From a virus, in the IMG/VR virus record IMGVR_UViG_3300008259_000147, positions 14,656 to 78,655 of that record: 64,000 nt of DNA; one strand, given 5' to 3'. Positions 17,538 through 57,512 of the stretch are shown one piece after another. Every line of letters begins with the position of its first letter. The first letter of the stretch is position 1. Below the pieces are notes generated by a model. That model was not told the origin of the DNA. It ran no database searches and was given only the letters and a program-made list of their open reading frames with translations. Both the position numbers and the translations under genes were made by a program.

Positions 17538-20500
17538 TTATTGTCCAAATGGGCTTAGTATTGCACCACCAGTACCTGTTCCTCTATTGCGTTGGTAAAT
17601 TGAATTAAGATAATTTCTTGCAGCAGTATTTGCAGCATCAATTGCTTCTTTTTTATCTAGGCCATACCCATTAGGGTCTGAATACATTTTGTAATAATAA
17701 TCAAATGCATCATTATAATCAACACCTGATCCACCACCTGTTAAAGGAGTATCATAAATACTTTTCAATGTAGGGTTTACAGCAACACTATATGGTGTTT
17801 GGAACTGATAAGGATACTGTGCATTTATCAACATCTGATTTAATACATTATTATAGCCTTTACCAAAAGCACTTGCAAATCCTGCATCTTTAGCATTTTG
17901 ATTCATTGCGTTTTCTTTAGCAATTGCATTAATGCTATTCATATAATCACTCTTTTCTTTCTCACCCAGCATTGTAAATTGATTAATGTTTTGAACATTA
18001 GCCGCTTGAGTCTTTAAGAATTGATCTGTATTTAATGCTTCTGTTTGTTGTTGAATATCTGAAGCAGCTTTTAATCCTTTTCCAGTAACACCTAATGCAG
18101 AACCTCTTGCTTCAGGACCTGTACCCATTCCTTCAACTGTTTGAGTAACAGCACCTATTGGTTCATAGTTTTCATTTCTATAAACAGGAGACATTAAAGA
18201 AGGATTTGGTAATCCATAGTATGCATGATAATCAGGTATTTTCATACCTGCTGCAGCAATCATAGCAGCTTGATCTGAAGGAAACCATTGACCTAATCCA
18301 TAACCTGTAGGTGATTGAAATCCTGGTTTCCGTGTAGTTATAACTTCTTCTTCTGGTGTTTCTTCTGGATCCTTCTCAGTTTTAGTTTCAACTTTTTTAA
18401 CTTTCTTTTTAATACCTGGTGCAGACCATGTATAAATACCAAACTTTTTATCTTTTTGATATGGGCCTTTTTTATTGACAAAATACTCAGATAAACCATT
18501 GGCCTTTCTCCACTCATTGTATTTATTTTGAAACCATTCTACAGCTTTCTCTCTTGTTGCGTTATCTCTAGATGTAGCATCTGCTCTCCATGAATCAACA
18601 CCACTACCATAATCTTTAAGAATAGTATCATGACGAGTAATAAAGTTGTCTACATCCAATGCTTCTTGTGCATTAGTTTCAGAATTAGTTACTGTATAGT
18701 ACCCTAAATCTGGATCATAATGTTGTGTATCAAATGCTCCAAACTTTTTATTAGGCATTATTACTTCAAAATCATCTGTATTTTGAAGAGCTGTTTCTGG
18801 AATAAGTTGAGTAAATTCTCCAGTATCTGCAAACTTTTGTAATTCACCACCTGTTTTCTTAGGCCATAAATAACTACCTGTTGTATCCTTAGGATGATAA
18901 TTACCACGTCTTATTTTTATTACTTTCTTTTTCTTTTCTGCTGCAGCTTTGGCTGCTGCTTCTGCTCTAGCTTTAGCTTCTGCCTCTGCTTGTGCTTTAG
19001 CAGCTGCTGCTTGTGCTTGTGCTTGTGCTATACTATCTGCAGCTGAATAATTAGTTAGTACTTTATTAGAATCTACTGCTACCTTGTTAGAATCTACCAT
19101 AGGGGTAGTTCTAAACATGCTATCTGCAATATGATATGCTACAGGATCCCTCATCATCTTTTTAATATCATCATTAGATGCTGTAGGATAAAGTTGTTTA
19201 AATATATTAAACATTGCTAAACTATCTGCCTGAGCTTTTGCAAGTTTACCAGTATCAGTAACAGAAGGAACTGTAGGAGTTCCTATAGGATTTGCAGGTA
19301 TGCTTTTACCAGGATTACCAGGTTGAGGTCCACTAAGTAAATCAGTAGTTGCATCTACAATTCCTAATCCACCAGCTAAACCTACCCATGGTAAAACTTT
19401 TTTTAACAAAGGAGATCCTGCATAGATATCTTTTGCTTGTTGCCATCTTGTATATGCTTCTGCAGATGCATTTGCTTGCTCTGCTGTAGCACCAGCTGAC
19501 TCTGCTGCTGCATAAGCAGCTTCATATGCTGCTGCTGCTTCTTCAGATTCTTGAAGCCCTTGCTCTGATGGTCTAGTCCATCTTCTGCCTTTTTTTACAG
19601 CATTGGCTGCAACTTTTTCTGCTTCTGCAGCTGCTTCTGCAGCCTTTGCTGCAGTCTCTGCAGTTTTAGCTGCTTTAGTACCTCTAATTGTATTTAGAGT
19701 CCATTTACCAGCATTCCACACTAGTTTACCAGCTTGTGTTATTCCCCATAAGCCTCCAGTAAGACCTAATACATCTAACATGCCAGCATCACCTGTAGGC
19801 CTTATTTTTGGCACAGCCCCAGATTGCCATGTATCAAGTCTTTGTCCATCAGGAGTTTGCCAATATTCAAATCCAGGTCTTTGTTCATAAGATTGACGAA
19901 AATAATAATCAAGTGGTAACTTACCTTCTACCACCACCTCATCCATCAATGGACTTATGTTGCCTGTAGATTGATCTACAAAATAATTTTGACCTGGTCT
20001 TCTAATGCCTACTGGAATACTTTGATCACCTGGATCATAAAATACTCCTGGATCAGATGGATTAGCTTCTAACTTATAACCTAATCTTCTTTCAAGATCA
20101 TCTAAAGTTTCATATTGGTATTTATGATCACTACCAGACCTTGTCATCCACTTTGTTTCTTCACCATCTTGTGCTCTACGTAGTGTTCCACCTCTTTTCA
20201 TTTTTTGTGGACCTTGTGGGTGTTTAAAATCTGATCCTAACAAAGGCATAGCAATAGCAGGAATTCCATCAGGAAATCCTTTCATACCTTCTTGCACAAG
20301 TGCCAACTGACCCAACTTTTTCATGTTGTTGTCAATCATCAACTGAGCAGTCTTCTTTGTCATTGCATCCGCATTAGGATCATTTAACAATGCTTTATAT
20401 TTATTGAGATCATATCTCTGAGCTACCTTAGCAGGAGTCACTGCTTTACTACTAGACATATTAAAGATACCCTTCAATAAATCTTTATTTTTTATTAAAA

Positions 20501-20804
20501 GACCTCTATAGTCAGAGAATACAAAGCTACCATCTGGAACATTTAATGGTGTACCACCTTGAGAGTGTCTCTTGCCACCAATCTTAGCATGTTCAACCAT
20601 GCCATCATTGTCAAGATCTCCCACCACAGTTTCTCCTCTCTCAGCCTCAATAGTAGCCTCATCTCTTGGTACAGCAGAAAGTGTAGTAGTTACATTATTA
20701 CTTGCTGTTTTATTTTCGTAGTTCCAAATACTACCTGTTACAAGGCCATAGTTGCGCTGGTCTCCCATACTACCACCTCTGACTCTATTAATTTTTACTT
20801 TCAT
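17538..20804 (-). CDS. Multi-module virion protein (1088 aa) with EAERGE/GxxHxxGG N-terminal domain, GG linkers and a membrane/TolA-like module
   Basis: Motifs IEAERGETV...GGKRHSQGGTPLNVPDGSFVFSD; linkers MKRGGTLRRAQDG and KKTGGELQKFADTG; Ala/Lys/Glu-rich helices; two hydrophobic segments. Confidence 0.6.
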   Translation of the reverse strand: MKVKINRVRGGSMGDQRNYGLVTGSIWNYENKTASNNVTTTLSAVPRDEATIEAERGETVVGDLDNDGMVEHAKIGGKRHSQGGTPLNVPDGSFVFSDYRGLLIKNKDLLKGIFNMSSSKAVTPAKVAQRYDLNKYKALLNDPNADAMTKKTAQLMIDNNMKKLGQLALVQEGMKGFPDGIPAIAMPLLGSDFKHPQGPQKMKRGGTLRRAQDGEETKWMTRSGSDHKYQYETLDDLERRLGYKLEANPSDPGVFYDPGDQSIPVGIRRPGQNYFVDQSTGNISPLMDEVVVEGKLPLDYYFRQSYEQRPGFEYWQTPDGQRLDTWQSGAVPKIRPTGDAGMLDVLGLTGGLWGITQAGKLVWNAGKWTLNTIRGTKAAKTAETAAKAAEAAAEAEKVAANAVKKGRRWTRPSEQGLQESEEAAAAYEAAYAAAESAGATAEQANASAEAYTRWQQAKDIYAGSPLLKKVLPWVGLAGGLGIVDATTDLLSGPQPGNPGKSIPANPIGTPTVPSVTDTGKLAKAQADSLAMFNIFKQLYPTASNDDIKKMMRDPVAYHIADSMFRTTPMVDSNKVAVDSNKVLTNYSAADSIAQAQAQAAAAKAQAEAEAKARAEAAAKAAAEKKKKVIKIRRGNYHPKDTTGSYLWPKKTGGELQKFADTGEFTQLIPETALQNTDDFEVIMPNKKFGAFDTQHYDPDLGYYTVTNSETNAQEALDVDNFITRHDTILKDYGSGVDSWRADATSRDNATREKAVEWFQNKYNEWRKANGLSEYFVNKKGPYQKDKKFGIYTWSAPGIKKKVKKVETKTEKDPEETPEEEVITTRKPGFQSPTGYGLGQWFPSDQAAMIAAAGMKIPDYHAYYGLPNPSLMSPVYRNENYEPIGAVTQTVEGMGTGPEARGSALGVTGKGLKAASDIQQQTEALNTDQFLKTQAANVQNINQFTMLGEKEKSDYMNSINAIAKENAMNQNAKDAGFASAFGKGYNNVLNQMLINAQYPYQFQTPYSVAVNPTLKSIYDTPLTGGGSGVDYNDAFDYYYKMYSDPNGYGLDKKEAIDAANTAARNYLNSIYQRNRGTGTGGAILSPFGQ

Positions 20805-20837
20805 AAACTTTTAAAATTTATTTTTGTAAATGCTGCT

Positions 20838-20853
20838 TATTTAAATTTACAAA
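20838..20853 (-). promoter_or_regulatory. Putative phage late promoter (TTTGTAAATTTAAATA)
   Basis: One of five intergenic copies of TT-n3-TA(A/T)ATT upstream of late genes. Confidence 0.4.
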
Positions 20854-20868
20854 TATTTTGTGAAATTA

Positions 20869-23637
20869 TCAAATAAATTCTACACTTCCTCCAGCTGCAT
20901 ATATTTGCTGAATGAATGCATCTTGTTCTTCAGGACTAAGAGTTGATAAATCTACTTCAGAACCATCTTCATAATCATCTAATATGCTACCACCCATTTT
21001 AGCTTCACCGATTTGAGTTAAATATGCTGATGGAAAATTGTTATATCCAAAGTTTTGATTACCAGGAGTATATGCATTCATTCCCATGTAGTTAGTAGTA
21101 CCAACAGGACTTGGTGTACCATTTCTTGTAGGAGCTTTATTAGCAGCTCCTTTGTATGCCATTCCTGTACTCACAGTATTAAAGTTATCTTGAGCATTTT
21201 TATAGAGAGCTTTTCTATCATTTTCTTTAATTCCTGACATTACTCCAGATTGAAAGGCCATAGTATTCATATAGTTATTCATTCCACTTAATGGTGTACG
21301 ATATGAGAATGTCCAATGAGCATCTCCACCAGGAGCATACTTTTCAATTCCTCCTCCAAACTCATATCCATTCCAACCTTTGCCGCGACCTCTTGCCCAA
21401 TGCTTATAAGCCCTATCATCATTTCTATATAAGCCAGTATTAAAATCATCATCTGCATTATACATTTCATTTAATGCATCTTGTCTTTTTTGCATTCTTG
21501 AAGCTTCCCAACCTCTTCCATTAGGATTTCCCCATGGTTTATACGGGTTATAATCAGTATCATTTATTCCTTTTCCATAGTTTCTAAAAGCTCTTTCTAA
21601 ATTATGATATCGTGTTTCATCAAAATTAGGATCATTCATCATATCTGCATATTTAGGGTTATAAATATTTTGATCATAATCCCAACCTTTTCCTCTGTAA
21701 TTTTCATTTTTAATACCTCTCTCATATTGTCGTAATGCTTTATTCTGATTACGATATGCATTTATATTAAAATTAGTATCTGCTAACATAGCATTCATTC
21801 TATCTTGCAAATTACTATTTTTATTATTTGAATTTGAGTTTTGATCATTGTTTTCAGAAGTTTGATCACTGTCATTATTTCCAGAACCTTGATTATTATT
21901 TGAACCAGGTCCACTATTTGTATTAGGTCCACTATTTGTACCAGCTCCTTGACCAGAAGCACCAAAGTAATAAGGAACTGCTGCTAATGCTCCTGCATTT
22001 TTAGCTCTAAATCTTTGTTTCTTACCATCAGCATTGTAGTAAGTACCTCTAAATTTAGGCTTGCCCATCAGTCCCATCATTCCCATTGGATTTGCACCCA
22101 TGCCAAAAGCACCTAGTGCTTGTCCTAATAATCCAAGACCTGCTCCTGCTTGACTACCTAAAAGTTGAGTAATTGCATTACCTCCAACATATGATGCATA
22201 TGGATTAGAAAAATTAGAACCACCTGGATTAGAACCACCACCTGAATTACCAGAACCTTGATTATTACCACCTTGGTTATTACCAGGATTAGTTGACCCT
22301 GCTCTATTTGAACCAGCTACACCAGGGTTGTTGCTATAATACATGTCATAATAACCAGATTCATTTGCTGGTAAATTATATGCTGTACCATCATCCCCTT
22401 CATAATACCACTCATTAAATTTATTATCAAATTTTATTTTTCTATTTTGACCACTTAAATCTTGATATACATAATTTGGATCATTATAGTTAATTCCATC
22501 TGCAGCTTTAGGTAAAGATCCACCATTCACATATTTTGCAAAATCATTTACACTACCAAATTTACCTTTCTTCTTTTTCTTAGGATTGTGATCCATACCA
22601 CCTTCTTTTAAAATTTGATATAACTCATCAATATTAGATTGACCACCCATCTCAAACATAAAGTTAGGTGTAGTTTCACCTGCTCTATCATATGGTAAAT
22701 ATGTTTGAGCTTGAGGAAATGCTTCTCCACCTGCTTTCATTGCACCCAATGCACCTTGCATTTGCACTTGCAAATTTGCAGGTAATTGATTTATAGGAAT
22801 TTGCCCATTCATAGCTTGTTGCATAAGCATACCTTCTTTATCAGATTTACCATACAAATCTGAATACATTGGATTATTTATTGGATTACCCATTCCCATC
22901 ATAGAATCACCCATGTTTCCAAAACCACCAAGGAAATTGCCTAAATTACCTAGACCAGCTTTAGGCAAAGATTGCCCACCTGCTTCATATAAGTCATCCA
23001 TCATATAAGCAGTACCACCATTAGCTTTATAATACCAATTAAGATTTTGAGCTTGTGGTGATGGATTATAATTGTCAAAACAATCAATGCAAGGTTGGCC
23101 ACCCATCTCGGCCATCCCCATTTGCTCTTGATCTTGTTGCATCATATCTTGTTCATCTTCTTGAGATACTTGTTCTTCTTGAGATGCTTGTAATTCTTTA
23201 GCAACAGCTGTCACTAATCCTTGGGCCTGTTCAACTGACATTCCCATTTTTACAAGTTCTTGCATAATTTGTTTGGGATCAGCACCTTGCTGAAGCCCTT
23301 GAGCAACCATACTGATTATTTTTTGTTGTTGATCAGAAGATGCTCCACCTTCTTGAGCGTATTGCATTGTATTCATTTTATCTGAGTTTGAATAATTAAA
23401 TGTACCTAATGAGTTAGCAGGTATTTCAACTGCCATGTTTCCTGGAACCACTACATTCTCTTGACCAGGTTGAGCAAATATAACATCTCCTGTTGGACTT
23501 AGTATGTAAGTGTGATCTATTTGATTCTTAAAAGTAAGAGGAGTATATCCATCTCTGCCTTTAATGATTGCACCATTTGTAGGATCTACATCTAGTCCTT
23601 GCTGGTCTGTTCTAAAGTGTATTGGTTTTCTATCCAT
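20869..23637 (-). CDS. Low-complexity virion protein (922 aa) with about 11 xxGG motifs
   Basis: Long ORF in the operon; Gln/Met-rich and Gly/Asn-rich tracts; repeated YAQEGG, MAEMGG, YKANGG, YEAGG, MKAGG, FEMGG, LKEGG, YVNGG, YEFGG, AKMGG, YAAGG. Confidence 0.6.
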   Translation of the reverse strand: MDRKPIHFRTDQQGLDVDPTNGAIIKGRDGYTPLTFKNQIDHTYILSPTGDVIFAQPGQENVVVPGNMAVEIPANSLGTFNYSNSDKMNTMQYAQEGGASSDQQQKIISMVAQGLQQGADPKQIMQELVKMGMSVEQAQGLVTAVAKELQASQEEQVSQEDEQDMMQQDQEQMGMAEMGGQPCIDCFDNYNPSPQAQNLNWYYKANGGTAYMMDDLYEAGGQSLPKAGLGNLGNFLGGFGNMGDSMMGMGNPINNPMYSDLYGKSDKEGMLMQQAMNGQIPINQLPANLQVQMQGALGAMKAGGEAFPQAQTYLPYDRAGETTPNFMFEMGGQSNIDELYQILKEGGMDHNPKKKKKGKFGSVNDFAKYVNGGSLPKAADGINYNDPNYVYQDLSGQNRKIKFDNKFNEWYYEGDDGTAYNLPANESGYYDMYYSNNPGVAGSNRAGSTNPGNNQGGNNQGSGNSGGGSNPGGSNFSNPYASYVGGNAITQLLGSQAGAGLGLLGQALGAFGMGANPMGMMGLMGKPKFRGTYYNADGKKQRFRAKNAGALAAVPYYFGASGQGAGTNSGPNTNSGPGSNNNQGSGNNDSDQTSENNDQNSNSNNKNSNLQDRMNAMLADTNFNINAYRNQNKALRQYERGIKNENYRGKGWDYDQNIYNPKYADMMNDPNFDETRYHNLERAFRNYGKGINDTDYNPYKPWGNPNGRGWEASRMQKRQDALNEMYNADDDFNTGLYRNDDRAYKHWARGRGKGWNGYEFGGGIEKYAPGGDAHWTFSYRTPLSGMNNYMNTMAFQSGVMSGIKENDRKALYKNAQDNFNTVSTGMAYKGAANKAPTRNGTPSPVGTTNYMGMNAYTPGNQNFGYNNFPSAYLTQIGEAKMGGSILDDYEDGSEVDLSTLSPEEQDAFIQQIYAAGGSVEFI

Positions 23638-23645
23638 TTTATTTA

Positions 23646-25622
23646 TTATTTATAGCCTCTTGCTTTTAAGGCATTTATTATTGTATTATACATTTGATCA
23701 TCTATATCTGCTTTTGCATCCACTTTAGTTTTTTTATCGTTTGGATCATTAATTATTAGCTTACCATCTTTGTCTTTTTTACCTTCATAATATTTCATAT
23801 AACCATCTCTAATTTCTTTATGAGTTATAATATCTTTTAGCTTTAAGTTATATGTATCTAATAGTTCACTAATAGCTTCTACAGTAGATTCTAATTGATT
23901 AGGTGTAAGAGGTGGTGCATAACCACCACTATCATTTCCTGGATTTTGAAGTTCTATACCATATGAAAAATCATTTACATTATCTCTATTTTCATATCTA
24001 GAGTGACCTGCGTGAGCTGTTACTTGTTCTGGTGAAGCATAAACTCTTCTTGTACCATTTGCTAATACTGCAAGATGTGCATCATTTTCACCAGGTCTCA
24101 TAAATTGATTATGTAAATCTATATCAGATTGTGTCCAATCACCTTTTGCATCAGGTTTAAATGCAGTCCAATGTAATACAATTTTTTTCATTTCATTTTT
24201 TAAAGCATGTCCTTTTTTATAACTTTCATCTTTTTCAGTTCTAATATTAGGACTTTGATAGTATTCTACTTTGTGTCTGCTAGGGGTTGTGCCTGTACCT
24301 GCAATATACAATACATTACCTGCTACACCACCTGAATTTAATGCATCATATTCTTTTAGTCTATCAGAGGTAAAAGTTTTATCTTTAAATGAAAGTCCTT
24401 TTGAATAAGTTCCATTATCTGTTGCATAAACAGTAACATATTTTGAATTACCTTTTATCTTCTTAAATTCATTTTTAATATGTTTAAGACTACCCATTAC
24501 AAAGTATGTCTTTTTAGTATCAGGGTTTTGCATAATAAATTTACCACCTTCTACAGAACCAAAATAATCTTCATCACCATTAGTTCTTGTCATGATATTG
24601 ATACTACCTTTTTTTTCAGTCTTCTCATCATCTGATAACATATTAGTAATAGGTATTTGATAATTATTATTACCATGATCTAAATCAGGTTTTGTTCTAG
24701 ATTTACCATCTATTTCATCAAACGATACCACCTTGTTAGAAAATGTTTGTGAAATTAATACATCCTTTCTGTTTTTAAAATCTTTGAATGTACCAGCTAC
24801 AAAATTTCCATTTGCATCAACTCCAAAGTATGTGCTATTATCAGATGCTGCCTTATACTCACTTGGAGCAAGGAATGGTCTAAATGCAGTTATTATTGCA
24901 CCATCTGATTGGAAAGGTGTATAGTCTCCTCTATTTCTAACTTTAAATTTCATATTAGCTAAATTTATATTACCTGCTAATAAAGTTTGACCTGTTTTGT
25001 TTGTTACATTTGGTATTTCAACTTCTTTTAATTGAACTTTATTTTTGTTAAGTTTGTTATAATATTCAATTGTTCCTAGTGGTTTAGGTGTTTGCTTTTC
25101 ACTAAAATCTATTTTAACTGCATCAGGATCATCTCCACTATACATTTTATATTTTCTAGTTAATCCATTTATTGCAAGATTTTTATAGTAGTTAGCTACG
25201 TCAGCTGCTTCATTATAAGTATTTTTAATATCTCCAACTACAGTTGCTAAATAATCTTCTGTTCCACCAACAAGAGTTGATAATTCATTTTGAATGTTTT
25301 CAGTCAATGAAGGTTTTTGTTTAACTACTTTTGAACTAGAATTACCTTTTACATAACCATTAAAAGGATCAATGTTTATTTTAGGTGATGCAACTGATCC
25401 ACTTGACCAAAGATATTGTAATGAAGGTTCTTGTTTTTTAGGAGTAGGATTATATCTTTGTTGATAGTTATATTGATTAGATTTTAACAATCCTAAAATA
25501 TCTTTTTCTTCATTGCTATAACCCATCATTTGATATGTGTTATCCAAAAACCCATATAAGTTTTTCTTAGCAATATCATTATCTGAAATATCTAGCCAAT
25601 TATCTTTTCCTTTATCTGTCAT
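23646..25622 (-). CDS. Multi-domain protein (658 aa) with C-terminal N-acetylmuramoyl-L-alanine amidase (Amidase_2 type)
   Basis: KIVLHWTA...AHLAV...TAHAGHS...VNDFSYGIELQN...LTPNQLES...IITHKEI...KAD matches the zinc amidase motif series. Confidence 0.75.
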   Translation of the reverse strand: MTDKGKDNWLDISDNDIAKKNLYGFLDNTYQMMGYSNEEKDILGLLKSNQYNYQQRYNPTPKKQEPSLQYLWSSGSVASPKINIDPFNGYVKGNSSSKVVKQKPSLTENIQNELSTLVGGTEDYLATVVGDIKNTYNEAADVANYYKNLAINGLTRKYKMYSGDDPDAVKIDFSEKQTPKPLGTIEYYNKLNKNKVQLKEVEIPNVTNKTGQTLLAGNINLANMKFKVRNRGDYTPFQSDGAIITAFRPFLAPSEYKAASDNSTYFGVDANGNFVAGTFKDFKNRKDVLISQTFSNKVVSFDEIDGKSRTKPDLDHGNNNYQIPITNMLSDDEKTEKKGSINIMTRTNGDEDYFGSVEGGKFIMQNPDTKKTYFVMGSLKHIKNEFKKIKGNSKYVTVYATDNGTYSKGLSFKDKTFTSDRLKEYDALNSGGVAGNVLYIAGTGTTPSRHKVEYYQSPNIRTEKDESYKKGHALKNEMKKIVLHWTAFKPDAKGDWTQSDIDLHNQFMRPGENDAHLAVLANGTRRVYASPEQVTAHAGHSRYENRDNVNDFSYGIELQNPGNDSGGYAPPLTPNQLESTVEAISELLDTYNLKLKDIITHKEIRDGYMKYYEGKKDKDGKLIINDPNDKKTKVDAKADIDDQMYNTIINALKARGYK

Positions 25623-28600
25623 ATAAACCTGCTTGTGAGTTTAATTTATTATACTCATGAGCACCTATACTATGCCATTCATTTAATTGATTAGGACTTG
25701 AAAAAGCAGCAGAAGGACTATTCCAATTTTTAAACTGTTGGTTGCTTAAAGGAAAATCACCTCTTTGTTGTACATAGTATTTATCTCCTTCTTGTTTAGT
25801 TTCAAAGTATCTATTAGGTTTACCATGCACCATGCTAAAAATAGACATATCATTAGGATCTGTTCCATAAATAGATTTACCAAATCGTGCCTTAGATAAT
25901 AAACCTCCTTGAGCTTTAGGTAAAAACTCACCACCTCTTTCTTTATAAGTTGATGGATCTACCATATCAAGGTTAATTCCAAAATCCTTTAAAAAGAACT
26001 CTACTGTTCCTTTATTTCTTTCACGATTTGGAGCTTTCTTAGTACCTCTAGCATATTGTTTTGCAATAATATTTCTATATTTTAATCTATCAGCATCTGA
26101 CTTTGCTTGATTATAATCAACAATTGCATCAAGAAACTTAGGAAAAGCTTTTGAATATTTTTCAGTATCTTTTTGAAAAAAGTCTGGCCCTAGATTATAC
26201 ACATAATCTTCTATAAGTAATTGTTGATTATAAGGTAATGTATCAAATGTTAGATTTCTATCTTTAAATCTTTTATTATATCCTTGTACAGATTGATCAT
26301 AATGAGAATTAAAATCATCTTTCATTAATTTAATAGCTTGATCATCTGTAATTCCTTTTGCAAATCTTTTAGTTTTTACATCTTCAGGTGTTAACTTATG
26401 ACCATAACCTATTGTAGGAAGCCCACCTTCATGAGATTTATAAGGCATCCATACATTTAATTTAGAATCCCAACCCTTTTTTACACCATTCTCTTGATAT
26501 TTTAACCAATCATAATAATCATTAAGCTGTCTAGTTTTTAATTTTTCTTTATCTACAGTGGATTGGTTGGTTTGAGGAGAATCTGAATCATTAACTAAAT
26601 TATTCCAAAGAGACTTACCAGCAAGCTTGAGAAAATCAATGTTTCCAAAAAGAACAGGGTTGGTCATAATAGCTGAACCAATTGTACCAAGATCACCTAT
26701 AAATGAGTTTCCTCCATCTTGTTTTTTAGCAGGATAAAACTTTTTATTAGAAGTGTTGGTAACATCTGCATCTGTTAAACGAACATACTGATCACTAGCA
26801 TGTTGTCTACCATACCATGTATTTCCATAAGCTGGACTTAATGATCCATCAGGACCTCTATGATACCAATAACCTGTTGCTTTATCATAAACAGATCCTT
26901 GTTTTTGATCTTGAGATCTAGACCAATATGTTACACCAGGTGTATCTGCTGTATATGTATTTTTATAATAAAAATCTCTACCATTATTTAGCAACACTCT
27001 TCTCTCTTGTTCTGAAAGTTTATAAATATCTTTTTTATATTTATTCCATTCATTATCTAAATTTTGTTGTAAGGTAGGTGTCCAAGCATCTGTTTTAATA
27101 TCTACATTATATGAACCTCTATTTGGTAATCCTGATTGCCCTATGCTTTTTAAATATTGATCAAGCATGTATACTCTAGGATCTCTTCCTGCATTATACA
27201 TAAAATCTCCAGCAGATGCTTTTTCCATTGCTGTAGGAAATGCTCCAAGTTGAGGATAATATTTATCCATGTACCAATTTACAGCATCATCTTTACTAGC
27301 ACCAACTGGTAATGCAGGATTACCAAAGTTAGATAAACCATAACCACTAGCACTACCTCTATTATCTTCCCATGTCATTGAGTTGTATCCCATGTTCTGC
27401 ACACTATCTCTTGGAGATACTTGTCCATACTTCCATTGATATTTATCTAATGATCCACCTTCTCCAAAAAACTTATTTTGCAACATTTTAAATTCCATAT
27501 CACTTAATATGGCGGCAGCATCTCTTACTTTAGCTCCTTTAGTTCCTATAATAGGAGTGATTAAATTAGGACCTACTCTTAAAGTTTTATCTTCAAACAA
27601 AACACCAGATGGAATTTGATTTATATCAAAATCAGGAAAATATCTACTGTAATTTTTTCTGAGTCTTGATGTATTTCTTAATTGGTTTACTTGGTTATTT
27701 AAACCTATTGGCATAGGATCTGCAAAAACTTTGACATAGTAAGGATTATTACCACCATATCTTTCTCCTATCCATGTAGGGTCTTCAGCAAAATAAAGAA
27801 TGTCTTTATTTGATCCTTGTAATAATTGATCATGCCCACCACTTCTTCTACCTCTGTTAATAACATTTTCAGGAGCTGTGCTTGTTCCCATTATTTCTGC
27901 AACATCATAAGGGTTATCTGGATTTTTTCCTAAGCTCGCCATCCTCTTTCTAAATAAAGGATCATTTATAATTTCAGGACTTACATCCACAACTCTGTAT
28001 AAAGGTCTTTGATTATACTGCGTTTGTAACCAACTTTCAAAACCTTCTGGAGATTCTGGCAAATATTTAATTAATCCTTCCTTTTGATAACTTTTAGCTA
28101 AGTTATAAGCACTTAATACATCTTGAGAAATTGGTGTTGATTTTTTAAATAACTCACTAAATGATTTTGGAAATATTCCCATTTGAGGATTGACTCCAAA
28201 AGCCATCCTACCTGCATTATCAAATGCATTAACAAATCTTTTAGTACCTTTTAAACCTGTTCCAACAAAAGGATTTTGAAAAGTTGCTCTAGTAGATCCT
28301 TCAGGTGCTAATTTAGTATCATCTCTAAATTCACCTTGTGCAGGATTATAATATTCATAATTACCGTAACCAGGTTTATTAGTATATATTTTAGATTCTT
28401 TTTGAGCAGCTTGTGATTTCTTAAAAGCTTTTGCTTGTTCTGCTTTTTCAATGCTACCATATGTTGCAATATCTTTAGCCACAGATTGTGCAGCTACATT
28501 TTTTGGAGCAACAGTTACAGTACTCCTTACATTAGCTGGATTAGTTTGCCCTAATGCTTGATTAATTAATTGAGCACTTACAGATCCTGTAAGTTGATGT

Positions 28601-30603
28601 TTAGGAAGTGAGCCTCCTTGTTTAGCATATTGAATATTATCAAGCATTTGATTTTGATCAGGCTCATTTCTAGATATGGTATTTAACATATCTATAATTT
28701 GATCATCTGTATAAACACCTCTAAGTTGTTCTAATGCATCATAACTACTATCAGTTAAAGGTTTATAAGAGCCAAACATATCTATAGTAGCCTTTTCTGT
28801 AAAAGGATTATAAATACCTTGATTTTTCATTTCAAACCTTAATGCATTTAATCTAGCTCTTGTTTCAGTAGGACTAGCTACATAATAATTAAATTCATCC
28901 ATGCCTACCATTTTAGGATAATGACCAAACATATTAGGTTTTTGTCTTTTACGAGCAGTATTGTATGCATATTTCCCCATCAAATTTATATCTGAAATAG
29001 GAATTAACGGACCACCAAAATCACTTGCATGACTTATTTCATGAACATCAGTATCTAAAAGATTATCTTTTGAAAATGGTGTATTGGTTATTCTAGAGAT
29101 AGGAGAATTTCTAATTTTAGAATCATCAGTTGGATAATAACCCAATGCATTATAAGCATTTGATCCTTCGTATCCAATAACCTCCATATTATCTGATGTT
29201 CCATAACTATCAAGATAATTTCCACTTGTGTCATACCAATCCCGAAGATCATGTTTCCAATATTTTTGCTTTAATTTGGGATTTATATTTCTTGCAAAAT
29301 TCCAATATGATGAAGGATACTTATCCAATTCAGTTCTACTAAATCCAGATACACCTTTATCTTCAGGATATTTTTCATCTATCTCCTTACGTGAAAATTT
29401 AACATCTATATTATTAATATTTTCTAATCTTTTATCTCTTATTTGTTGCCAAAATGGATCTGTAGAGTAAAATGAATATGTGTCAGTATCAAATGACAAA
29501 GGTCTATGATTAGTAAAAAACTGTTCCCATCCAGTTGGATTATCTTTTTGAACAGATCTTTGTAACATTTGTTGAGCCATTGGAGAATTTGTCCAATCTC
29601 TCATAAAGTCTCTTCCTTGTTCTACTAACTGATCATAATAGTTAACTTCTACACCTTTCATCATACAAGTTTGAAATTCTTCATTCCATACTTGACCTTC
29701 AGGACATTCTCCTTTATTTCCAGATTGAGCTCTACGCAATGAGCCCCCTTGTCTATATCCATAATCTTGAGCATATGGACTAGGCCCTTGAAATTGCTTT
29801 TCAAAGTTTCTAGCTTCTCCTTCTAAAGTCCAAGGAGTATCATACATTGCAGGGTTAACATATCTATTATAAACTACTTCAGGAGAAGCAAAATTGAATG
29901 ATGGATTGTTAGATAAAAATTCATCAGTAATATATTTTTGATCTAATGCTCTTCTATTCCAATATTGCATTGCTGCATCATTCCCTGAAGGAATAGTTGG
30001 TTCTTTTAAAGGACCAGGATAAAATTCTGAATAACCAGAGTCTCCATTTATGTCTTGCCAGTAATGAAACATTTCATGAGGAACAACTCCTGGTATATGT
30101 TTATCTGCATCTGATAAATGTATAGTCTTAGTTAAAGGCTCATAAAAGCTATTACCTTGATTTGTAGTATCAAAGTATACACCACCTTGACCACCTGTTT
30201 GACGAACACCCTCTTTCATTGAATCTAAAAACAAACTTTTTGGAGATGCAGGATCTGCAGAATGCTGTCTCATAAGTTTATAAACTATATCATACTGAAG
30301 TCTTTCTGCAGGAGTTAACTGATTTGTAACATATAAGTATGTATCTAAATTCTCTGGATTCCTATCTGCTTCTGGATTTACCTTAGGCATATTTGAAGTA
30401 TCTCTTATACACTTTTTTGTAACAGGATCTTTAATCCATCCTGTAGGACAACCACCTGTTTGTGTTTCTTTCTTTACAGGTTTTTTTGGTGTATTAAAAT
30501 AATAGTCTACCATACCTTGCTGAGCTTTAGGTAATGGCAATGCACCACCTGAGCGCATTACTCTCTTTTGTTGGATAAGGTGAAGAAGCTTGTCAGTTTT
30601 CAT
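25612..30603 (-). CDS. Polyvalent protein/polyprotein (1663 aa): two zincins, ART-like domain, GH108-like and T4-lysozyme-like domains separated by GG linkers
   Basis: HEMFH...LEGEAR (30064-30078); HEISH...TETRAR (29029-29043); LYR...LYFAED...YG; DFMYNAG; QENG...HEGGLPTIGYGHKL...DYVYNLG; six xxGG linkers. Confidence 0.7.
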   Translation of the reverse strand: MKTDKLLHLIQQKRVMRSGGALPLPKAQQGMVDYYFNTPKKPVKKETQTGGCPTGWIKDPVTKKCIRDTSNMPKVNPEADRNPENLDTYLYVTNQLTPAERLQYDIVYKLMRQHSADPASPKSLFLDSMKEGVRQTGGQGGVYFDTTNQGNSFYEPLTKTIHLSDADKHIPGVVPHEMFHYWQDINGDSGYSEFYPGPLKEPTIPSGNDAAMQYWNRRALDQKYITDEFLSNNPSFNFASPEVVYNRYVNPAMYDTPWTLEGEARNFEKQFQGPSPYAQDYGYRQGGSLRRAQSGNKGECPEGQVWNEEFQTCMMKGVEVNYYDQLVEQGRDFMRDWTNSPMAQQMLQRSVQKDNPTGWEQFFTNHRPLSFDTDTYSFYSTDPFWQQIRDKRLENINNIDVKFSRKEIDEKYPEDKGVSGFSRTELDKYPSSYWNFARNINPKLKQKYWKHDLRDWYDTSGNYLDSYGTSDNMEVIGYEGSNAYNALGYYPTDDSKIRNSPISRITNTPFSKDNLLDTDVHEISHASDFGGPLIPISDINLMGKYAYNTARKRQKPNMFGHYPKMVGMDEFNYYVASPTETRARLNALRFEMKNQGIYNPFTEKATIDMFGSYKPLTDSSYDALEQLRGVYTDDQIIDMLNTISRNEPDQNQMLDNIQYAKQGGSLPKHQLTGSVSAQLINQALGQTNPANVRSTVTVAPKNVAAQSVAKDIATYGSIEKAEQAKAFKKSQAAQKESKIYTNKPGYGNYEYYNPAQGEFRDDTKLAPEGSTRATFQNPFVGTGLKGTKRFVNAFDNAGRMAFGVNPQMGIFPKSFSELFKKSTPISQDVLSAYNLAKSYQKEGLIKYLPESPEGFESWLQTQYNQRPLYRVVDVSPEIINDPLFRKRMASLGKNPDNPYDVAEIMGTSTAPENVINRGRRSGGHDQLLQGSNKDILYFAEDPTWIGERYGGNNPYYVKVFADPMPIGLNNQVNQLRNTSRLRKNYSRYFPDFDINQIPSGVLFEDKTLRVGPNLITPIIGTKGAKVRDAAAILSDMEFKMLQNKFFGEGGSLDKYQWKYGQVSPRDSVQNMGYNSMTWEDNRGSASGYGLSNFGNPALPVGASKDDAVNWYMDKYYPQLGAFPTAMEKASAGDFMYNAGRDPRVYMLDQYLKSIGQSGLPNRGSYNVDIKTDAWTPTLQQNLDNEWNKYKKDIYKLSEQERRVLLNNGRDFYYKNTYTADTPGVTYWSRSQDQKQGSVYDKATGYWYHRGPDGSLSPAYGNTWYGRQHASDQYVRLTDADVTNTSNKKFYPAKKQDGGNSFIGDLGTIGSAIMTNPVLFGNIDFLKLAGKSLWNNLVNDSDSPQTNQSTVDKEKLKTRQLNDYYDWLKYQENGVKKGWDSKLNVWMPYKSHEGGLPTIGYGHKLTPEDVKTKRFAKGITDDQAIKLMKDDFNSHYDQSVQGYNKRFKDRNLTFDTLPYNQQLLIEDYVYNLGPDFFQKDTEKYSKAFPKFLDAIVDYNQAKSDADRLKYRNIIAKQYARGTKKAPNRERNKGTVEFFLKDFGINLDMVDPSTYKERGGEFLPKAQGGLLSKARFGKSIYGTDPNDMSIFSMVHGKPNRYFETKQEGDKYYVQQRGDFPLSNQQFKNWNSPSAAFSSPNQLNEWHSIGAHEYNKLNSQAGLYDR

Positions 30604-33600
30604 CGTGGACTTAGAGTTTCTTTTGTTGTTACTACTTTTAAATTCATTTTTTCAGATCCTGATTGCAATCTTCTTAAGATAACTCTATTTCCATAGTGTC
30701 TAAACTTCTTCCTTTGCAAAGGTGACTTAGCATAATTAACAGCTTGAGGATTTAGATTCTTCCTATAGCCATTACATTCTGTGATAAAGTTAGTAATTTG
30801 TAAGCCATTAAACTCACCTCTATCTCTTGTAGCATCCCAGAATTGATTAAATCTGTATTTATTCTCTTCTTTAGCCACATGAATATCTATACTATCTAAA
30901 TTTATCTTAGGGTAATTTAACAAAGCTACAGGATTATTTTTAGGTTTAATATGTAAATTTAATAAACCTGAGGTTTGTTCTGTATTATAAATAAGAGCTT
31001 GATCAAAGTTTCCATCCAACACATGATATCTATCTACACATCCTGTGTTGTATTTGAATACTTCTAAGTAATACTCCACACTTTTTATTGTAGTAACCGA
31101 AGCACCTGTGTTTACAGGAAACTCTATCTCCCATCCATAGTTTACACCATAGTAATTATTATAGCTATTACATAATACATTGTGTTTCCAAAAGTCATTA
31201 CCTTTTATAGTGTAGAAATGATCATTTGTAGAGAACTCTAAGTTAGGATGCCAGTCATGAAAACTTATCCACATCTTAGTTTTAGGATCATAACTAATAG
31301 TCCAAGAGCAATCTTCAAAGTAGTTAGTATCGCTAGGATCAATTAAAGTTTTATTAGATGTGTTAATAGGAATTAAAGTAACTACAAATTTATTAATAAG
31401 ATTTAATTGAATATTGGCAGGTACTTTAGAATCAATCAGTGTAATATTAATTTTAAAACTACCATCTGAAATATAAGGAAATGCTTTTTTAATATTTGGT
31501 GCTTTTTCTATTTCAGTGGCCACACAATTTACAAATGATTCAATACCTGCATTTGTAGGAACTGTTGCAGTGTAAGTACATGTTGCAAGATCATATCCAT
31601 TTATATTTCCAGATATCTGATAGCCATCTTGTAATTGAGTTGTACTTGATCCATAAGTAACTTTGAAATTATATGAGTATGATGTTACTCGGAAGTTTTT
31701 AGTGTCAGGCATATACTCTATATCTGTCCCTACTTCTATTCCAGGCAATAACTTATAATCCTTTTTAGAGAAATATACAATCTCATATTGATTATCATAT
31801 GTTGTTTGACATCCAATTCCTTTTACAGGATTATCTGTTAAATCGTAATTTGGAAAAGATTTTGTCAAACTGTATATCAGATTTTCTGCAAACCAATATC
31901 TCATACCATTCATAGAAATATCAACTATCTGATTACCAGCTAACTGCATAATCTTTCCATTTCTTTGACTCATGTAGAAAATACCATATGTAGTATTAAT
32001 TACACTTCTTGTAGATTGACAAGAACCATATTCTAATTCAAGATCTGCATTTACAAGAGCTTGAAATGGTTGGTTAAATAAACCACCATCACCAATTGTA
32101 ATTCTATTACCTGTAGATGTTTGTAATTCATCTACCCCATTAATAGTTGTAGGTGTTGCATCATCAAAGAAAATAGCAGAACCTGTTCTATTAATTGGCT
32201 TTACATTAGTAATTACATTTTCAAAATCTTTGTAGTTGTTGTTTAAGTATATTCTCCAGTTATCTCTAGATTGTTCATACTGCTGCTGCAAACTATAAAC
32301 CATTCTAGCAGGATAATATTCAAAACAAGATGCAGGAATATCTGGATCATATGATCTAGGCAAAACACTTGACCAACTTGTATTATTTATTGAAGCTTTT
32401 GATACAGATAAACTATAATCATATTTAAAGAACTCTGGCACTTTTATAATGTCTGTTCTAAATAACTCATATAGATTAGTGTTGCCATATGGATTATAGA
32501 ATTGCTCAGAAGGTAGAGCACCATAATCTCTACTTGCTAAATTAATCTCAGACTCACAATAAAAATCCTTAACCCCATTTACAAAAAGATAGAAGTATCC
32601 ATTCTTAATATAGAATGTCTTCTTTAACATATCCTGAATTCTTAATCTATATGAATTTGGATCTCTATCTAAATGATATAATTTACTTGGGCCAAGTACC
32701 CAACTAGTAATTGTACCAACTGGATTAGTTACTAATTTTGCAAACTTGCGAGCAAAATCTCTAATAAATCTTAAAGGATTTAAACTAAGTCTAGGAAATG
32801 CACTTGTGTTAATTGAAATATCATTAAAGTCTATTCCTTCAAATGTAGACCAATATCTAGGATACGCAACATTAGCATATAGCTTATAATCAAAGTCAGT
32901 TCCATCAGGCATGTTAAATAGCCATTGATTAAATAATGGAAATGTATTTTTCTCAGTATATCTATTAATGTAGACATCTCCTCTAAAATAAACAGAAGAA
33001 GTGTGAGGATAGTTTTTTGTATATACAATCTTCTCTACACAAGTTGATACAGGAATCTGAGTTATAGATGATAATTGACCATATGCACCTTTTAAATCTA
33101 ACTTTAATCCTACATAATAAGAAGAAATGTTTAAAGTAAAATTATTATTTGTTGTTGTCCAAGCTTTTAATTGATTTACAGTTCTTCTACTTTGATCAAT
33201 TGTTGAAGGATTTACTAATGTTCCAATTGTATTTATTATTGCAGTATTTGGTCTAAATAAATTATTCACGGTATATGTTCCATCAAATACTTGAACACCT
33301 GACTCAACATATCTAGCTGCTTTAATTTGTCTTCTGTAGTTTTGATTTTGAGGATTCTTTTTTGAACTATAAAATCCATGGCTATTATATTGTAATGCAT
33401 ATTGTCTCCAAGGCAAAAGTTCCATTACAAGCTTCATAGCATTACCAAATCCTTGAGCTAACATGAATCCACCAATGCTAAATATTAAATTCATCTGAGT
33501 AATAAAACTCATTATGTCAGGAAGTATTCCAGGTTTTTTAGTAGAAGGATTTAAAGTAGTAAGTTCATTTCCTTCAGAGTTCATTGTTGGAGCTCCTACC

Positions 33601-35843: not shown

Positions 35844-36228
35844 TTTGATTATCTACTTTTTCAAATTCTTTTTTGACTTTTTCACTGCCTATAAATTTAT
35901 AGAATTCTTCACACAGAAACCCCATCAACCAAGCACATGTTTCTTCATCTGTAATATCTCTATCTTCTGCTATTCTTTTTGCAGCATGAAATAACTCATG
36001 ACCTATTGTGTTATGATTAAGAAACTTAGCATCTATCATTACAATGTATAAGCCACCATCTACAGTAATAGTAATACCTTCTGCTTCTTCAGCTGCAGTA
36101 CCAGGAACTAATGTTCCCTTTGCATATTTCTTTTGTAAATACTTTTCTGACTTTCCCATCTCATTTGTTATTACAAATAAGATAGAACAATTGAATGTAT
36201 TTACTCTTACTTTTTTAGTAATTCTCAT
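35836..36228 (-). CDS. Small standalone zincin-like metallopeptidase (130 aa)
   Basis: TIGHELFHAA...DEETCAWLMG: HEXXH plus downstream Glu; overlaps both neighbours. Confidence 0.65.
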   Translation of the reverse strand: MRITKKVRVNTFNCSILFVITNEMGKSEKYLQKKYAKGTLVPGTAAEEAEGITITVDGGLYIVMIDAKFLNHNTIGHELFHAAKRIAEDRDITDEETCAWLMGFLCEEFYKFIGSEKVKKEFEKVDNQNG

Positions 36229-56915: not shown

Positions 56916-57512
56916 TTATAAGTAATCTTTCATTTCATGGTCAAGCAATCTCATTGCAATCTTGTCTTCACCAAATGCAAGCAATTGATCCATCCAGTTC
57001 TGCATCTTAGCATGTTCTTCTACTTGCTCTTTAAGATATTCTAAACCAAGTTGATATAACATATGATCTCCCATGCTCAAAGCATGAGAAGATAATTCTT
57101 TAATTTGAGTGGTTACATCAATCTCATGCTGATAAGAATCTTTAATGATTTGAGGTAATCCTGTGAAGTTTTGCTCAGGCTGCTCTAGTTCTGCAGTTGC
57201 TGGCTGCACACCCATTGCTAGTAAATACTCTCTAGCAAGATCTGCGTGTTTCATTTCCTCATCAGAGTATTTTCTCCACAACTTTCCTCCATTCACATAG
57301 CCATTATTATCTAGCCATAAAGACATAGATAGATAAATTCTACCAGAATATTCTTCTTGTTGAACTCTATAATTAAGATGATTTAGACATTCATCAGATA
57401 AAAGGATATTTTTATTTTTTGTTGTAGGCTTAGCTATAGTCTCACTTGCTTCTGAATCAGAAGTAGTTTTAGACATAGTTCTTAACACTCTTTTTATAAT
57501 AGGTTTTTCCAT
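56916..57512 (-). CDS. Ferritin (non-haem, FtnA-like) with about 35-aa N-terminal extension
   Basis: LN..VQQEEYS..IYLSMS.W, EEMKHA, HEIDVT, EQVEE and LLDHEM ferroxidase-centre pattern. Confidence 0.85.
   Translation of the reverse strand: MEKPIIKRVLRTMSKTTSDSEASETIAKPTTKNKNILLSDECLNHLNYRVQQEEYSGRIYLSMSLWLDNNGYVNGGKLWRKYSDEEMKHADLAREYLLAMGVQPATAELEQPEQNFTGLPQIIKDSYQHEIDVTTQIKELSSHALSMGDHMLYQLGLEYLKEQVEEHAKMQNWMDQLLAFGEDKIAMRLLDHEMKDYL

Follow-up and report, generated by a model that had tools for sequence, protein, structure and literature searches.

A conserved di-glycine peptide marks module boundaries in the predicted virion cargo of a crAss-like phage

The structure of crAss001, in which only a few short docked cargo segments are resolved (PMC10172136), raises the question of how crassviruses take up, hold and order several megadaltons of cargo protein and then expel it. 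Here we approach this question through an uncultured phage that, judged by its genes, is crAss-like. The DNA analyzed is a 64-kb stretch (IMG/VR record IMGVR_UViG_3300008259_000147, positions 14,656 to 78,655; hereafter the window) of an incomplete 78.7-kb viral contig with a guanine-cytosine (GC) content of 31%. Three large proteins encoded in the window, of 1663, 922 and 1088 amino acids (aa), share a short peptide built around Gly-Gly. A first-pass annotation interpreted these proteins as polyproteins that are cut into separate injected effectors, each left with a common N-terminal tag, and offered an uncleaved capsid-docking peptide as the alternative. We find that a strict form of the motif is a real, widespread and apparently undescribed peptide and that it marks the module boundaries of modular arrays in the virion-cargo gene block.

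A strict motif confined to three proteins

Strictly defined, the motif reads [MAY]-[KR]-x-G-G-x(0-2)-L-[PR]-[KR]-[AYH]-Q-x-G, and there are nine clear and two borderline copies, all in the 1663-, 922- and 1088-aa proteins (Table 1). We trained a hidden Markov model (HMM) on 96 copies taken from other phages and excluded the window and its nearest relative from this set. By this model the nine sites score 6.3–10.9 bits and the two borderline sites 2.4 and 1.4 bits. The best score elsewhere in the contig is 2.2 bits, and 100 shuffled proteomes yielded a mean of 0.01 matches of at least 6 bits, with a top score of 6.1. The regular expression GG-x0-2-[LIF]-x0-2-[KR]-[AYFHW]-[AQG] likewise matches only these three proteins among the 32 open reading frames (ORFs) of the window. 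The glycine pairs lie at residues 19, 286, 663, 1049 and 1557 of the 1663-aa protein, at residues 205 and 652 of the 1088-aa protein, and at residues 303 and 372 (clear) and 220 and 761 (borderline) of the 922-aa protein.

On recomputation, the ORFs and motif coordinates given in the first-pass annotation for the 1663- and 1088-aa proteins are all correct. Its counts of about 20 copies in total and about 11 in the 922-aa protein are too high; by HMM the latter has two clear and two borderline copies. Enrichment over shuffled proteomes holds for the strict motif (9–11 copies versus 0.01 per proteome) and not for the loose x-x-G-G pattern, since plain GG counts are near those expected from composition (14 versus 9.8, 19 versus 16.4 and 10 versus 9.0 in the three proteins). 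Additional weak x-x-GG sites, including KQDGG in the 1663-aa protein, are by themselves indistinguishable from chance.

The statement that the motif is conserved in protein and not in DNA is roughly right. The copies have only ~22 nucleotides (nt) in common, at 73–86% identity (families D2, D6 and D11). Averaged over eight codons, the DNA is 63% identical and differs at synonymous positions, and outside the peptide-coding stretch the copies share no DNA repeat. A literature search for motif peptide strings returned nothing relevant, and neither the paper describing crAss001 C1 (PMC10172136) nor that on polyvalent proteins (PMC5512222) describes a conserved junction peptide.

Conservation in related phages

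Relatives were sampled as 51 IMG/VR loci that share the N-terminal domain (N-domain) of the 1088-aa protein, for which there are at least 223 metagenomic homologues. The first 190 residues of this family are 65–83% identical among relatives, and conservation then falls to nothing save for an island, [MA]-[KR]-[KRY]-G-G-L-[VP]-K-[YA]-Q-x-G-G, which follows a variable-length spacer rich in Q, E and P. Within the 67 aa examined past the N-domain, GG is present in 82 of 100 homologues, and the profile around it is two-sided. Numbered relative to a cut after Gly-Gly, P5 is M or A (43% each; 2.5 bits), P4 is K or R (70%; 1.9 bits) and P3 is K, Y or R, followed by L, K, Q and G at +1, +3, +5 and +7/+8. 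Conservation reaches P8', and the resulting profile of ~13 residues is longer than usual protease sites. The motif is kept across phages whose other proteins are 30–45% identical and whose GC contents are 31% versus 41%.

In the 51 loci, the anchor gene has 0.74 regular-expression matches per 1000 aa; for the three genes upstream of it the values are 0.90, 0.45 and 0.23. These densities are about tenfold the shuffle expectation, compared with one match in 121,000 aa of the downstream polymerase-associated genes. A complete 124-kb relative (terminal repeats, 41% GC) has six true copies, and all six fall in three cargo ORFs among its 117 ORFs. Across the proteome and its relatives, the motif is confined to cargo genes. 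Cargo-position ORFs of Cellulophaga phi4:1 and Flavobacterium FPSV-S29 are motif-free, and some more distant IMG/VR loci also lack the motif.

Module boundaries and module exchange

In the 1663-aa protein, a GG element lies just upstream of each of six modules: a full copy of the motif for five of the six, and the weak site KQDGG for the lysozyme module. As the first-pass annotation had proposed, the motif falls between unrelated domains; no BLAST match among the six modules is better than E 0.4, and the module spacings are 267, 377, 386, 248 and 260 aa. The lysozyme domain (residues 1329–1479) matches PHROG 4290 (E 1.3e-11) and Pfam PF00959 (E 2.4e-4, just under the cut-off), and HExxH sequences are found at residues 176 and 521. 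An AlphaFold2 (AF2) model of residues 1–700, built from a 17-row alignment, has a mean predicted local distance difference test (pLDDT) score of 42, which is too poor for domain definition or a fold search. At the N-terminal junction of the 1088-aa protein, where the position of the motif relative to a predicted fold could be tested, the motif-bearing residues 195–218 have pLDDT <50 and lie outside the N-domain fold, with pLDDT >90. The motif is thus in a low-confidence linker, which is probably disordered.

Modules of the 1663-aa protein recur in other genes and in other orders in the relatives. The block spanning residues 277–670 matches residues 26–408 in locus L003, between L003 motifs at 35 and 401, and L003 has no module 1. 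Module 1 is found between two motifs inside the 1088-aa homologue of locus L007, and module 4 is flanked by motifs at 250 and 462 in protein P0157. The 18-aa leader with the motif at residue 19 also heads six other proteins with different downstream modules. Considering distinct blocks in all upstream cargo ORFs, 16% of BLAST-block starts and 21% of ends lie within −10 to +25 residues of a GG, versus 6% of random positions, an approximately threefold enrichment. Comparison of homologues thus reveals module swapping at the motif, both between phages and between genes. Small homologues of module 4 (203–297 aa) are mostly motif-free and may represent endolysins from other phages.

A near-identical relative, P0127 (2428 aa), consists of a counterpart of the 1663-aa protein (94% identical), ~71 aa with a further motif, KTYAQGGSLPKAQTGI, and the 658-aa amidase-domain ORF (100% identical). 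The window is without this ~71-aa junction piece. Its 1663- and 658-aa ORFs overlap by 11 nt (25612–25622) in different frames, and the motif of the junction has been lost together with the fusion. The split of a P0127-type gene could be a real deletion at the junction or an assembly error.

Two of the motif copies in the 1663-aa protein are followed by a Cys-bounded loop of the form C-P-x-G-x(9-10)-C, namely GGCPTGWIKDPVTKKC (30400–30450, minus strand, residues 52–68) after copy 1 and GECPEGQVWNEEFQTC (29656–29706, minus strand, residues 300–316) after copy 2. The same type of loop occurs behind the first motif in L003.

Table 1 Motif copies and other features of the predicted cargo gene block, with positions in the window.
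Feature	Positions	Strand	Residues	Basis and remarks
1747-aa virion protein, muzzle position	30600..35843	-		PHROG 37948, E 9.5e-70; motif-free; borders the cargo block on its upstream side
1663-aa modular cargo protein (P0001)	25612..30603	-		Leader and six modules: two HExxH, two of unknown function, one lysozyme-like, one small C-terminal
Motif copy 1, MRSGGALPLPKAQQG	30514..30558	-	16-30	HMM 7.1 bits; after the 18-aa leader
Motif copy 2, YRQGGSLRRAQSG	29719..29757	-	283-295	HMM 7.0 bits
Motif copy 3, YAKQGGSLPKHQLTG	28585..28629	-	659-673	HMM 8.7 bits; BLAST blocks end at 664-670 and start at 659
Motif copy 4, FGEGGSLDKYQWKYG	27424..27468	-	1046-1060	HMM 6.3 bits; module 4 homology begins at 1043-1065 in other proteins
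Weak site KQDGG	26710..26724	-	1294-1298	No HMM match; between module 4 and the lysozyme module; module 4 BLAST blocks end at 1297-1300
Motif copy 5, KERGGEFLPKAQGG	25903..25944	-	1554-1567	HMM 10.9 bits, top score; degenerate second copy GGLLSKARFG directly after
658-aa amidase-domain protein	23646..25622	-		Amidase_2, E 9.4e-13; motif-free
922-aa Gly/Met/Asn/Gln-rich cargo protein (P0002), C2-position family	20869..23637	-		No Pfam or PHROG match
Borderline copy, YEAGGQSLPKAGLG	22948..22989	-	217-230	HMM 2.4 bits; regular-expression match
Motif copy, MKAGGEAFPQAQTY	22699..22740	-	300-313	HMM 8.1 bits; variant kept in L004-L009
Motif copy, YVNGGSLPKAADG	22495..22533	-	369-381	HMM 10.7 bits
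Borderline copy, YEFGGGIEKYAPGG	21325..21366	-	758-771	HMM 1.4 bits; regular-expression match
C-terminal tail AAGGSVEFI of the 922-aa protein	20872..20898	-		C-terminus comparison; second class of GG-preceded peptide
1088-aa C1-like cargo protein (P0003)	17538..20804	-		Conserved N-domain, motif, variable middle, motif, conserved C-terminal domain; both motifs conserved in alignment A1
Folded N-domain of the 1088-aa protein	20226..20687	-	40-193	AF2 pLDDT >90 (36-row alignment)
Motif copy, MKRGGTLRRAQDG	20163..20201	-	202-214	HMM 10.0 bits; directly behind the N-domain
Motif copy, KKTGGELQKFADTG	18819..18860	-	649-662	HMM 8.0 bits; ahead of the conserved C-terminal domain; G652 and G653 nearly invariant in A1

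The cargo block of a crAss-like phage

The large ORFs of the window are all on the minus strand. The major capsid protein (MCP) is a 541-aa protein (60418–62043) that matches PF23898 Crass_capsid with E 1.8e-28, and an MCP of this family is present in all five of the relatives' genomes searched. The gene order begins with the 1747-aa protein in the muzzle position, continues with the 1663-, 658-, 922- and 1088-aa proteins and ends with proteins of 967, 1555, 5242 and 2267 aa. In crAss001 the muzzle gene gp44 precedes the cargo genes gp45 and gp46, which are followed by the polymerase-associated giants, with gp47 next in order (PMC10172136). Because the two layouts are equal, we place the motif in the cargo block of a crAss-like phage. 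Given this synteny, the three large proteins are probably packaged and injected.

The 1747-aa protein is a putative muzzle on the basis of gene order. It has a tblastn match to gp042 of Cellulophaga phi4:1, verified as structural by mass spectrometry, and it also matches virion proteins of Flavobacterium FPSV phages. The crAss ring-protein families PF24228 and PF25702 (R1 and R2) are detected in a complete relative (G001), and the window's own R1 and R2 candidates have only PHROG matches to 'virion structural protein'. No cultured member was found, as a tblastn search with the 1088-aa N-domain against 50,697 phage records gave no match. A related-locus search with the 1663-aa protein as the query returned no loci.

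The capsid and tail gene block also encodes a ferritin-like protein (56916–57512, minus strand; PF00210, E 6.1e-22) with a 40-aa low-complexity N-terminal extension and without the GG/LPKAQ motif. G001 encodes a ferritin-like protein as well. Ferritin-like proteins are classic cargo of HK97-fold encapsulins.

Comparison with crAss001 gp45 and polyvalent proteins

The cargo protein gp45 (C1) of crAss001 is mostly disordered, with short ordered segments docked on the portal, rings and muzzle (PMC10172136; PDB entry 7qog, chain M; Bayfield et al. 2023). Like gp45, the 1088-aa protein is encoded after the muzzle gene and before the polymerase-associated genes, and its N-domain has a weak resemblance to the portal-bound domain of gp45 (residues 425–552). 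In a VIA-align comparison the N-domain superimposes on gp45 residues 425–550 (7qog_M) with Z 4.8 and rmsd (root-mean-square deviation) 4.7 over 100 residues at 18% identity; the 7qog_M row ranks 28 among many helical-hairpin rows and has the widest coverage and the highest identity in the list. In hhalign, FVFSD...TPAKVA of the N-domain pairs with YVFSD...TFAKAA of gp45 at E 0.005, in a local alignment with a probability of only 7%. A Foldseek search of the N-domain against the PDB gave nothing with E <0.3, and an HMM profile search against PDB sequences gave no match. These weak structural lines and the synteny together suggest that the 1088-aa protein is likely the C1 counterpart, with an N-domain predicted to bind the portal wing. 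Such binding would explain the strong conservation of the N-domain.

The two proteins also differ. There is no BLAST or HMM sequence match between gp45 and the 1088-aa protein, and the portal-binding domain is central in gp45, the putative one N-terminal in the 1088-aa protein. In addition, gp45 is a single 842-aa protein without enzyme modules, and it has only degenerate GG-x-L sites that lack the full LPKAQ half.

Few parts of the family are as conserved as residues 1–37 of the 1088-aa protein (RVRGGSMGDQRNYGLVTGSIWNYE; 20694–20804, minus strand), which AF2 nonetheless models at pLDDT <50. Contact with a partner, for example the portal, may be needed for these residues to fold.

Polyvalent proteins are very large, multi-domain proteins of phages and conjugative elements that are delivered with DNA, and processing by embedded zincin-like metallopeptidases has been predicted for them (Iyer et al. 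2017, PMC5512222). Like them, the proteins described here include peptidoglycan hydrolases, HExxH sequences that are candidate zincin-like domains and uncharacterised domains in shuffled orders, and the 1663-aa protein combines six unrelated modules in one polypeptide that are recombined in relatives. Unlike the polyvalent proteins, they have one 13-residue peptide ahead of each module (the word 'linker' is absent from PMC5512222), and their HExxH modules are not recognised by Pfam.

A proposed uncleaved docking or handling tag

Our preferred interpretation, to which we assign a probability of roughly 0.4, is that each cargo module carries the motif as a docking or handling tag that stays uncleaved. 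The motif would be a short linear peptide between glycine hinges within a disordered linker, and every module in the early-ejected C1/C2-class cargo of this marine-type crAss-like phage would have such a linker in front of it. In the particle, the extended peptide would be bound by some conserved surface of the phage, with portal, tail-barrel rings, muzzle and capsid wall as candidates. Cargo proteins with several modules would in this way be loaded, held in order and discharged one module after another. Docking would be comparable to that of the separate short segments of gp45 on the portal, ring proteins and muzzle. With its own tag on each cassette, modules could therefore be swapped between genes and phages with packaging retained. 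In this proposal we infer the binding, its target and the absence of cutting.

Several features fit such a tag. (i) The conserved island past a variable spacer, with pLDDT <50 beside a domain with pLDDT >90, has the signature of a short linear motif. (ii) Copies occur in tandem, e.g., GGEFLPKAQ-GGLLSKARFG, and at 19–70 aa from N termini behind unrelated leaders. (iii) In the 51 loci, nearly all −1 ORFs (the C2-position family) have GG-x-[IV]-E-[FY]-[LI]-(D) as their C-terminal end, and removal of five residues from an extreme C terminus would serve little purpose. (iv) Bands of crAss001 virions at 150, 270 and >300 kDa (PMC6235969) match the sizes of unprocessed large cargo proteins. The alternative raised in the first-pass annotation, an uncleaved docking peptide, thus fits the data at least as well as cleavage does, although computation does not settle whether the peptide is cut.

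Other C-terminal ends also follow a glycine pair. Many C1-like proteins (loci L003–L053) end in YGG-x-x-[YF]-x-[LF]-P-W-x-[ED], and other cargo ORFs end in GG-x-x-K-x-L-K-V-R-I-K-K, a sequence similar to the one with which the 1088-aa family begins, MKVKI(N/K)RVRGG.

Short peptides are known to load unrelated proteins into HK97-fold shells by way of a flexible Gly-rich linker, as in encapsulins and T4, and in this respect the present motif would be similar. The T4 capsid-targeting sequence is N-terminal and is cut off. The consensus for family 1 encapsulins is SDGSLGIGSLKRS, a terminal and single peptide that sits in a pocket formed by an N-terminal helix of the shell protein, in place of which most other HK97-fold proteins have an extended N-arm (PMC8346489). 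The likeness of encapsulin G-S-L-K/R to GG-S-L-(P/R)-(K/R) here is partial, with only G-S-L-(K/R) shared, and we regard it as an analogy only. Unlike the terminal SDGSLGIGSLKRS peptide, the copies here are internal, multiple and absent from part of the cargo.

Other points weigh against a docking tag. (i) Its binding partner is one that we infer. (ii) The giant polymerase-associated proteins of 967, 1555, 5242 and 2267 aa are without any copy; the motif is therefore not a general packaging signal and would be specific to an early, envelope-acting cargo set. (iii) The 658-aa amidase ORF is untagged among the cargo genes, though it is fused behind a tag in P0127. (iv) A P-side pattern (basic, basic/aromatic, G, G) that precedes several different peptides would have the look of a protease site. 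(v) Repeated consensus sites in packaged proteins are the signature of the prohead proteases of T4 and phiKZ-like phages. (vi) An HExxH sequence conserved in a giant polymerase-like protein is a possible universal protease candidate. (vii) The uncut FGG of gp45 is only weak evidence, because crAss001 lacks the full LPKAQ half.

Possible maturation cleavage and the search for a protease

The strongest competitor of the docking tag, which we nevertheless consider unlikely, is that the motif is a maturation cleavage site. A phage-encoded or virion-borne protease would cut after Gly-Gly to yield at least ten injected effectors starting with (S/T)-L-P-K-A-Q-x-G, and the leaders and C-terminal tails would be propeptides. 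Consistent with cleavage, the motif is found at module junctions in linkers that are of low confidence where tested, a GG element stands ahead of each module as well as behind the 18-aa N-terminal leader, and a common P-side [MA]-[KR]-[KRY]-G-G precedes several different downstream peptides. Moreover, the modules include enzymes that could act alone (lysozyme, amidase and HExxH), and the T4 and phiKZ-type prohead proteases, which cut internal head proteins at repeated short consensus sites, provide a precedent.

The motif itself is less readily reconciled with a cut. Conservation to P8', tandem copies and a conserved five-residue C-terminal tail are hard to explain by cutting alone, and no ORF in the 51 loci ends in ...GG or starts with M plus the tag. 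In gp45, which has several F/Y-GG sites, AFGG (residues 425–428) is intact in 7qog, inside the modelled, continuous segment 425–552; the ring-bound segment 214–245 begins four residues past SAYGG.

The systems invoked in the first-pass annotation were adenain, pS273R of African swine fever virus (ASFV) and the C39 peptidases. Like those, the present one has Gly-Gly at the proposed P2-P1, virion-associated multi-module proteins and one copy after a short N-terminal leader. It differs from them in the strong P' conservation and in the position of the hydrophobic residue, which in 82 homologues is at P5, with a basic residue at P4, so that the (M/I/L)-x-G-G consensus is not followed; adenain, PLpro and deubiquitinase (DUB) sites have a hydrophobic P4. 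The cognate protease families are also absent: PF00770 (C5), PF02902 (C48) and PF03412 (C39) were each found in none of five complete or near-complete relatives, although the C5 result is weak as PF00770 was also unmatched in control genomes. Cleavage by an adenain-, pS273R- or C39-like system is therefore not supported. The HK97-type family PF04586 (S78) was likewise found in none of the five relatives; no separate search was made for T4 S77, ClpP/S49 and phiKZ-type proteases, and Pfam could miss divergent members. In G001, Pfam detected no peptidase family save DUF1287 among 70 ORFs, including 31 ORFs of the structural module.

The DUF1287 protein (G001:C1:95381–95869, minus strand; E 2.6e-67) was rejected as a processing enzyme, being present in only one of the five relatives' genomes. 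It is encoded in the replication half of the genome and is probably an accessory gene unlinked to the motif.

Metallopeptidase-like HExxH sequences are candidate proteases. The cargo genes of 30 of 50 loci encode HExxH modules, a number that drops to 26 if only large cargo ORFs are considered, and an HExxH of the form GV-x-YHE-x-FH-x-x-FR is conserved in the giant polymerase-like protein of the contig, G001 and G003. These count in favour of cleavage, as does the predicted zincin-like processing of polyvalent phage proteins. Conversely, the motif-rich loci L004, L005, L006 and L008 have no HExxH module in their cargo, and the HExxH regions of the 1663-aa and giant proteins, as well as a 130-aa HExxH ORF, have no Pfam match even at E 1. 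In N4, the virion polymerase has a zincin-like domain and enters the particle unprocessed (PMC5512222).

In the window, the HExxH of the giant protein is at 6179–6193 (minus strand), residues 1249–1253 of a 5242-aa ORF that runs off the window; in G001 and G003, whose counterparts have 3882 and 4296 aa, it lies near residue 1008. It fits the zincin-like domain fused to N4-like virion polymerases (PMC5512222). The 130-aa ORF (35836–36228, minus strand), with HELFH and a match to PHROG 1365 (unknown function), is directly upstream of the muzzle-position gene and may encode a small metallopeptidase-like protein. L027, L030, L039 and L051 likewise have ORFs of 125–149 aa with HE[IV][YF]H, placed upstream of both the muzzle-position gene and the cargo block.

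Cutting could also leave a functional handle. A protease of no known family, possibly the giant-protein HExxH, would cut after GG in the particle or on ejection, and at least ten effectors would share an N-terminal (S/T)LPKAQxG handle that directs exit order or placement in the host envelope. We consider this version doubtful.

Readings without a partner or a protease

A passive role as hinge or refolding punctuation seems improbable. The glycine pair and proline would form a flexible, protease-resistant joint, and the uncut protein would unfold module by module through the tail channel with no partner. This agrees with the low-confidence linker, with the glycines that flank a proline-containing stretch and with the view that crassvirus cargo is extruded partly unfolded (PMC10172136). 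It leaves unexplained both the selection on L, K, [AYH] and Q across such diverged phages and the absence of the motif from equally large polymerase-associated cargo.

That the peptide is functionless and its coding stretch a recombination seam, i.e., microhomology for in-frame module exchange between co-infecting phages, is highly improbable: the enriched block boundaries, the reordered modules and the ~22 nt shared by the copies would suit it, but nucleotide identity is no more than the peptide forces, and the synonymous differences and the retention of the peptide across GC contents point therefore to selection on the protein, with module exchange more likely a consequence.

Known look-alikes were dropped as their defining residues do not fit and nothing speaks for them; these were the sortase LPXTG signal, the Bacteroidota signal-peptidase Q-rule, the AT-hook, a K-Q isopeptide cross-link and 2A-like ribosome skipping. 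For instance, R or Q can replace K in the motif, and Y or H is frequent at the −1 position.

Implications for crassvirus cargo

A 13-residue peptide ahead of every early-cargo module in hundreds of uncultured phages provides a concrete handle on the crassvirus cargo question. It can be mutated, used as bait for a partner or protease, and sought in existing cryo-EM (electron cryomicroscopy) maps and mass-spectrometry data. A tag on each cassette explains the free exchange of enzyme modules such as lysozyme, amidase and HExxH. A cleavage site would imply a new protease specificity, and if cutting leaves a shared handle, the system would be a form of virion polyprotein processing new to tailed phages. 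If the motif is a loading signal, it could be used to bring foreign proteins into phage particles.

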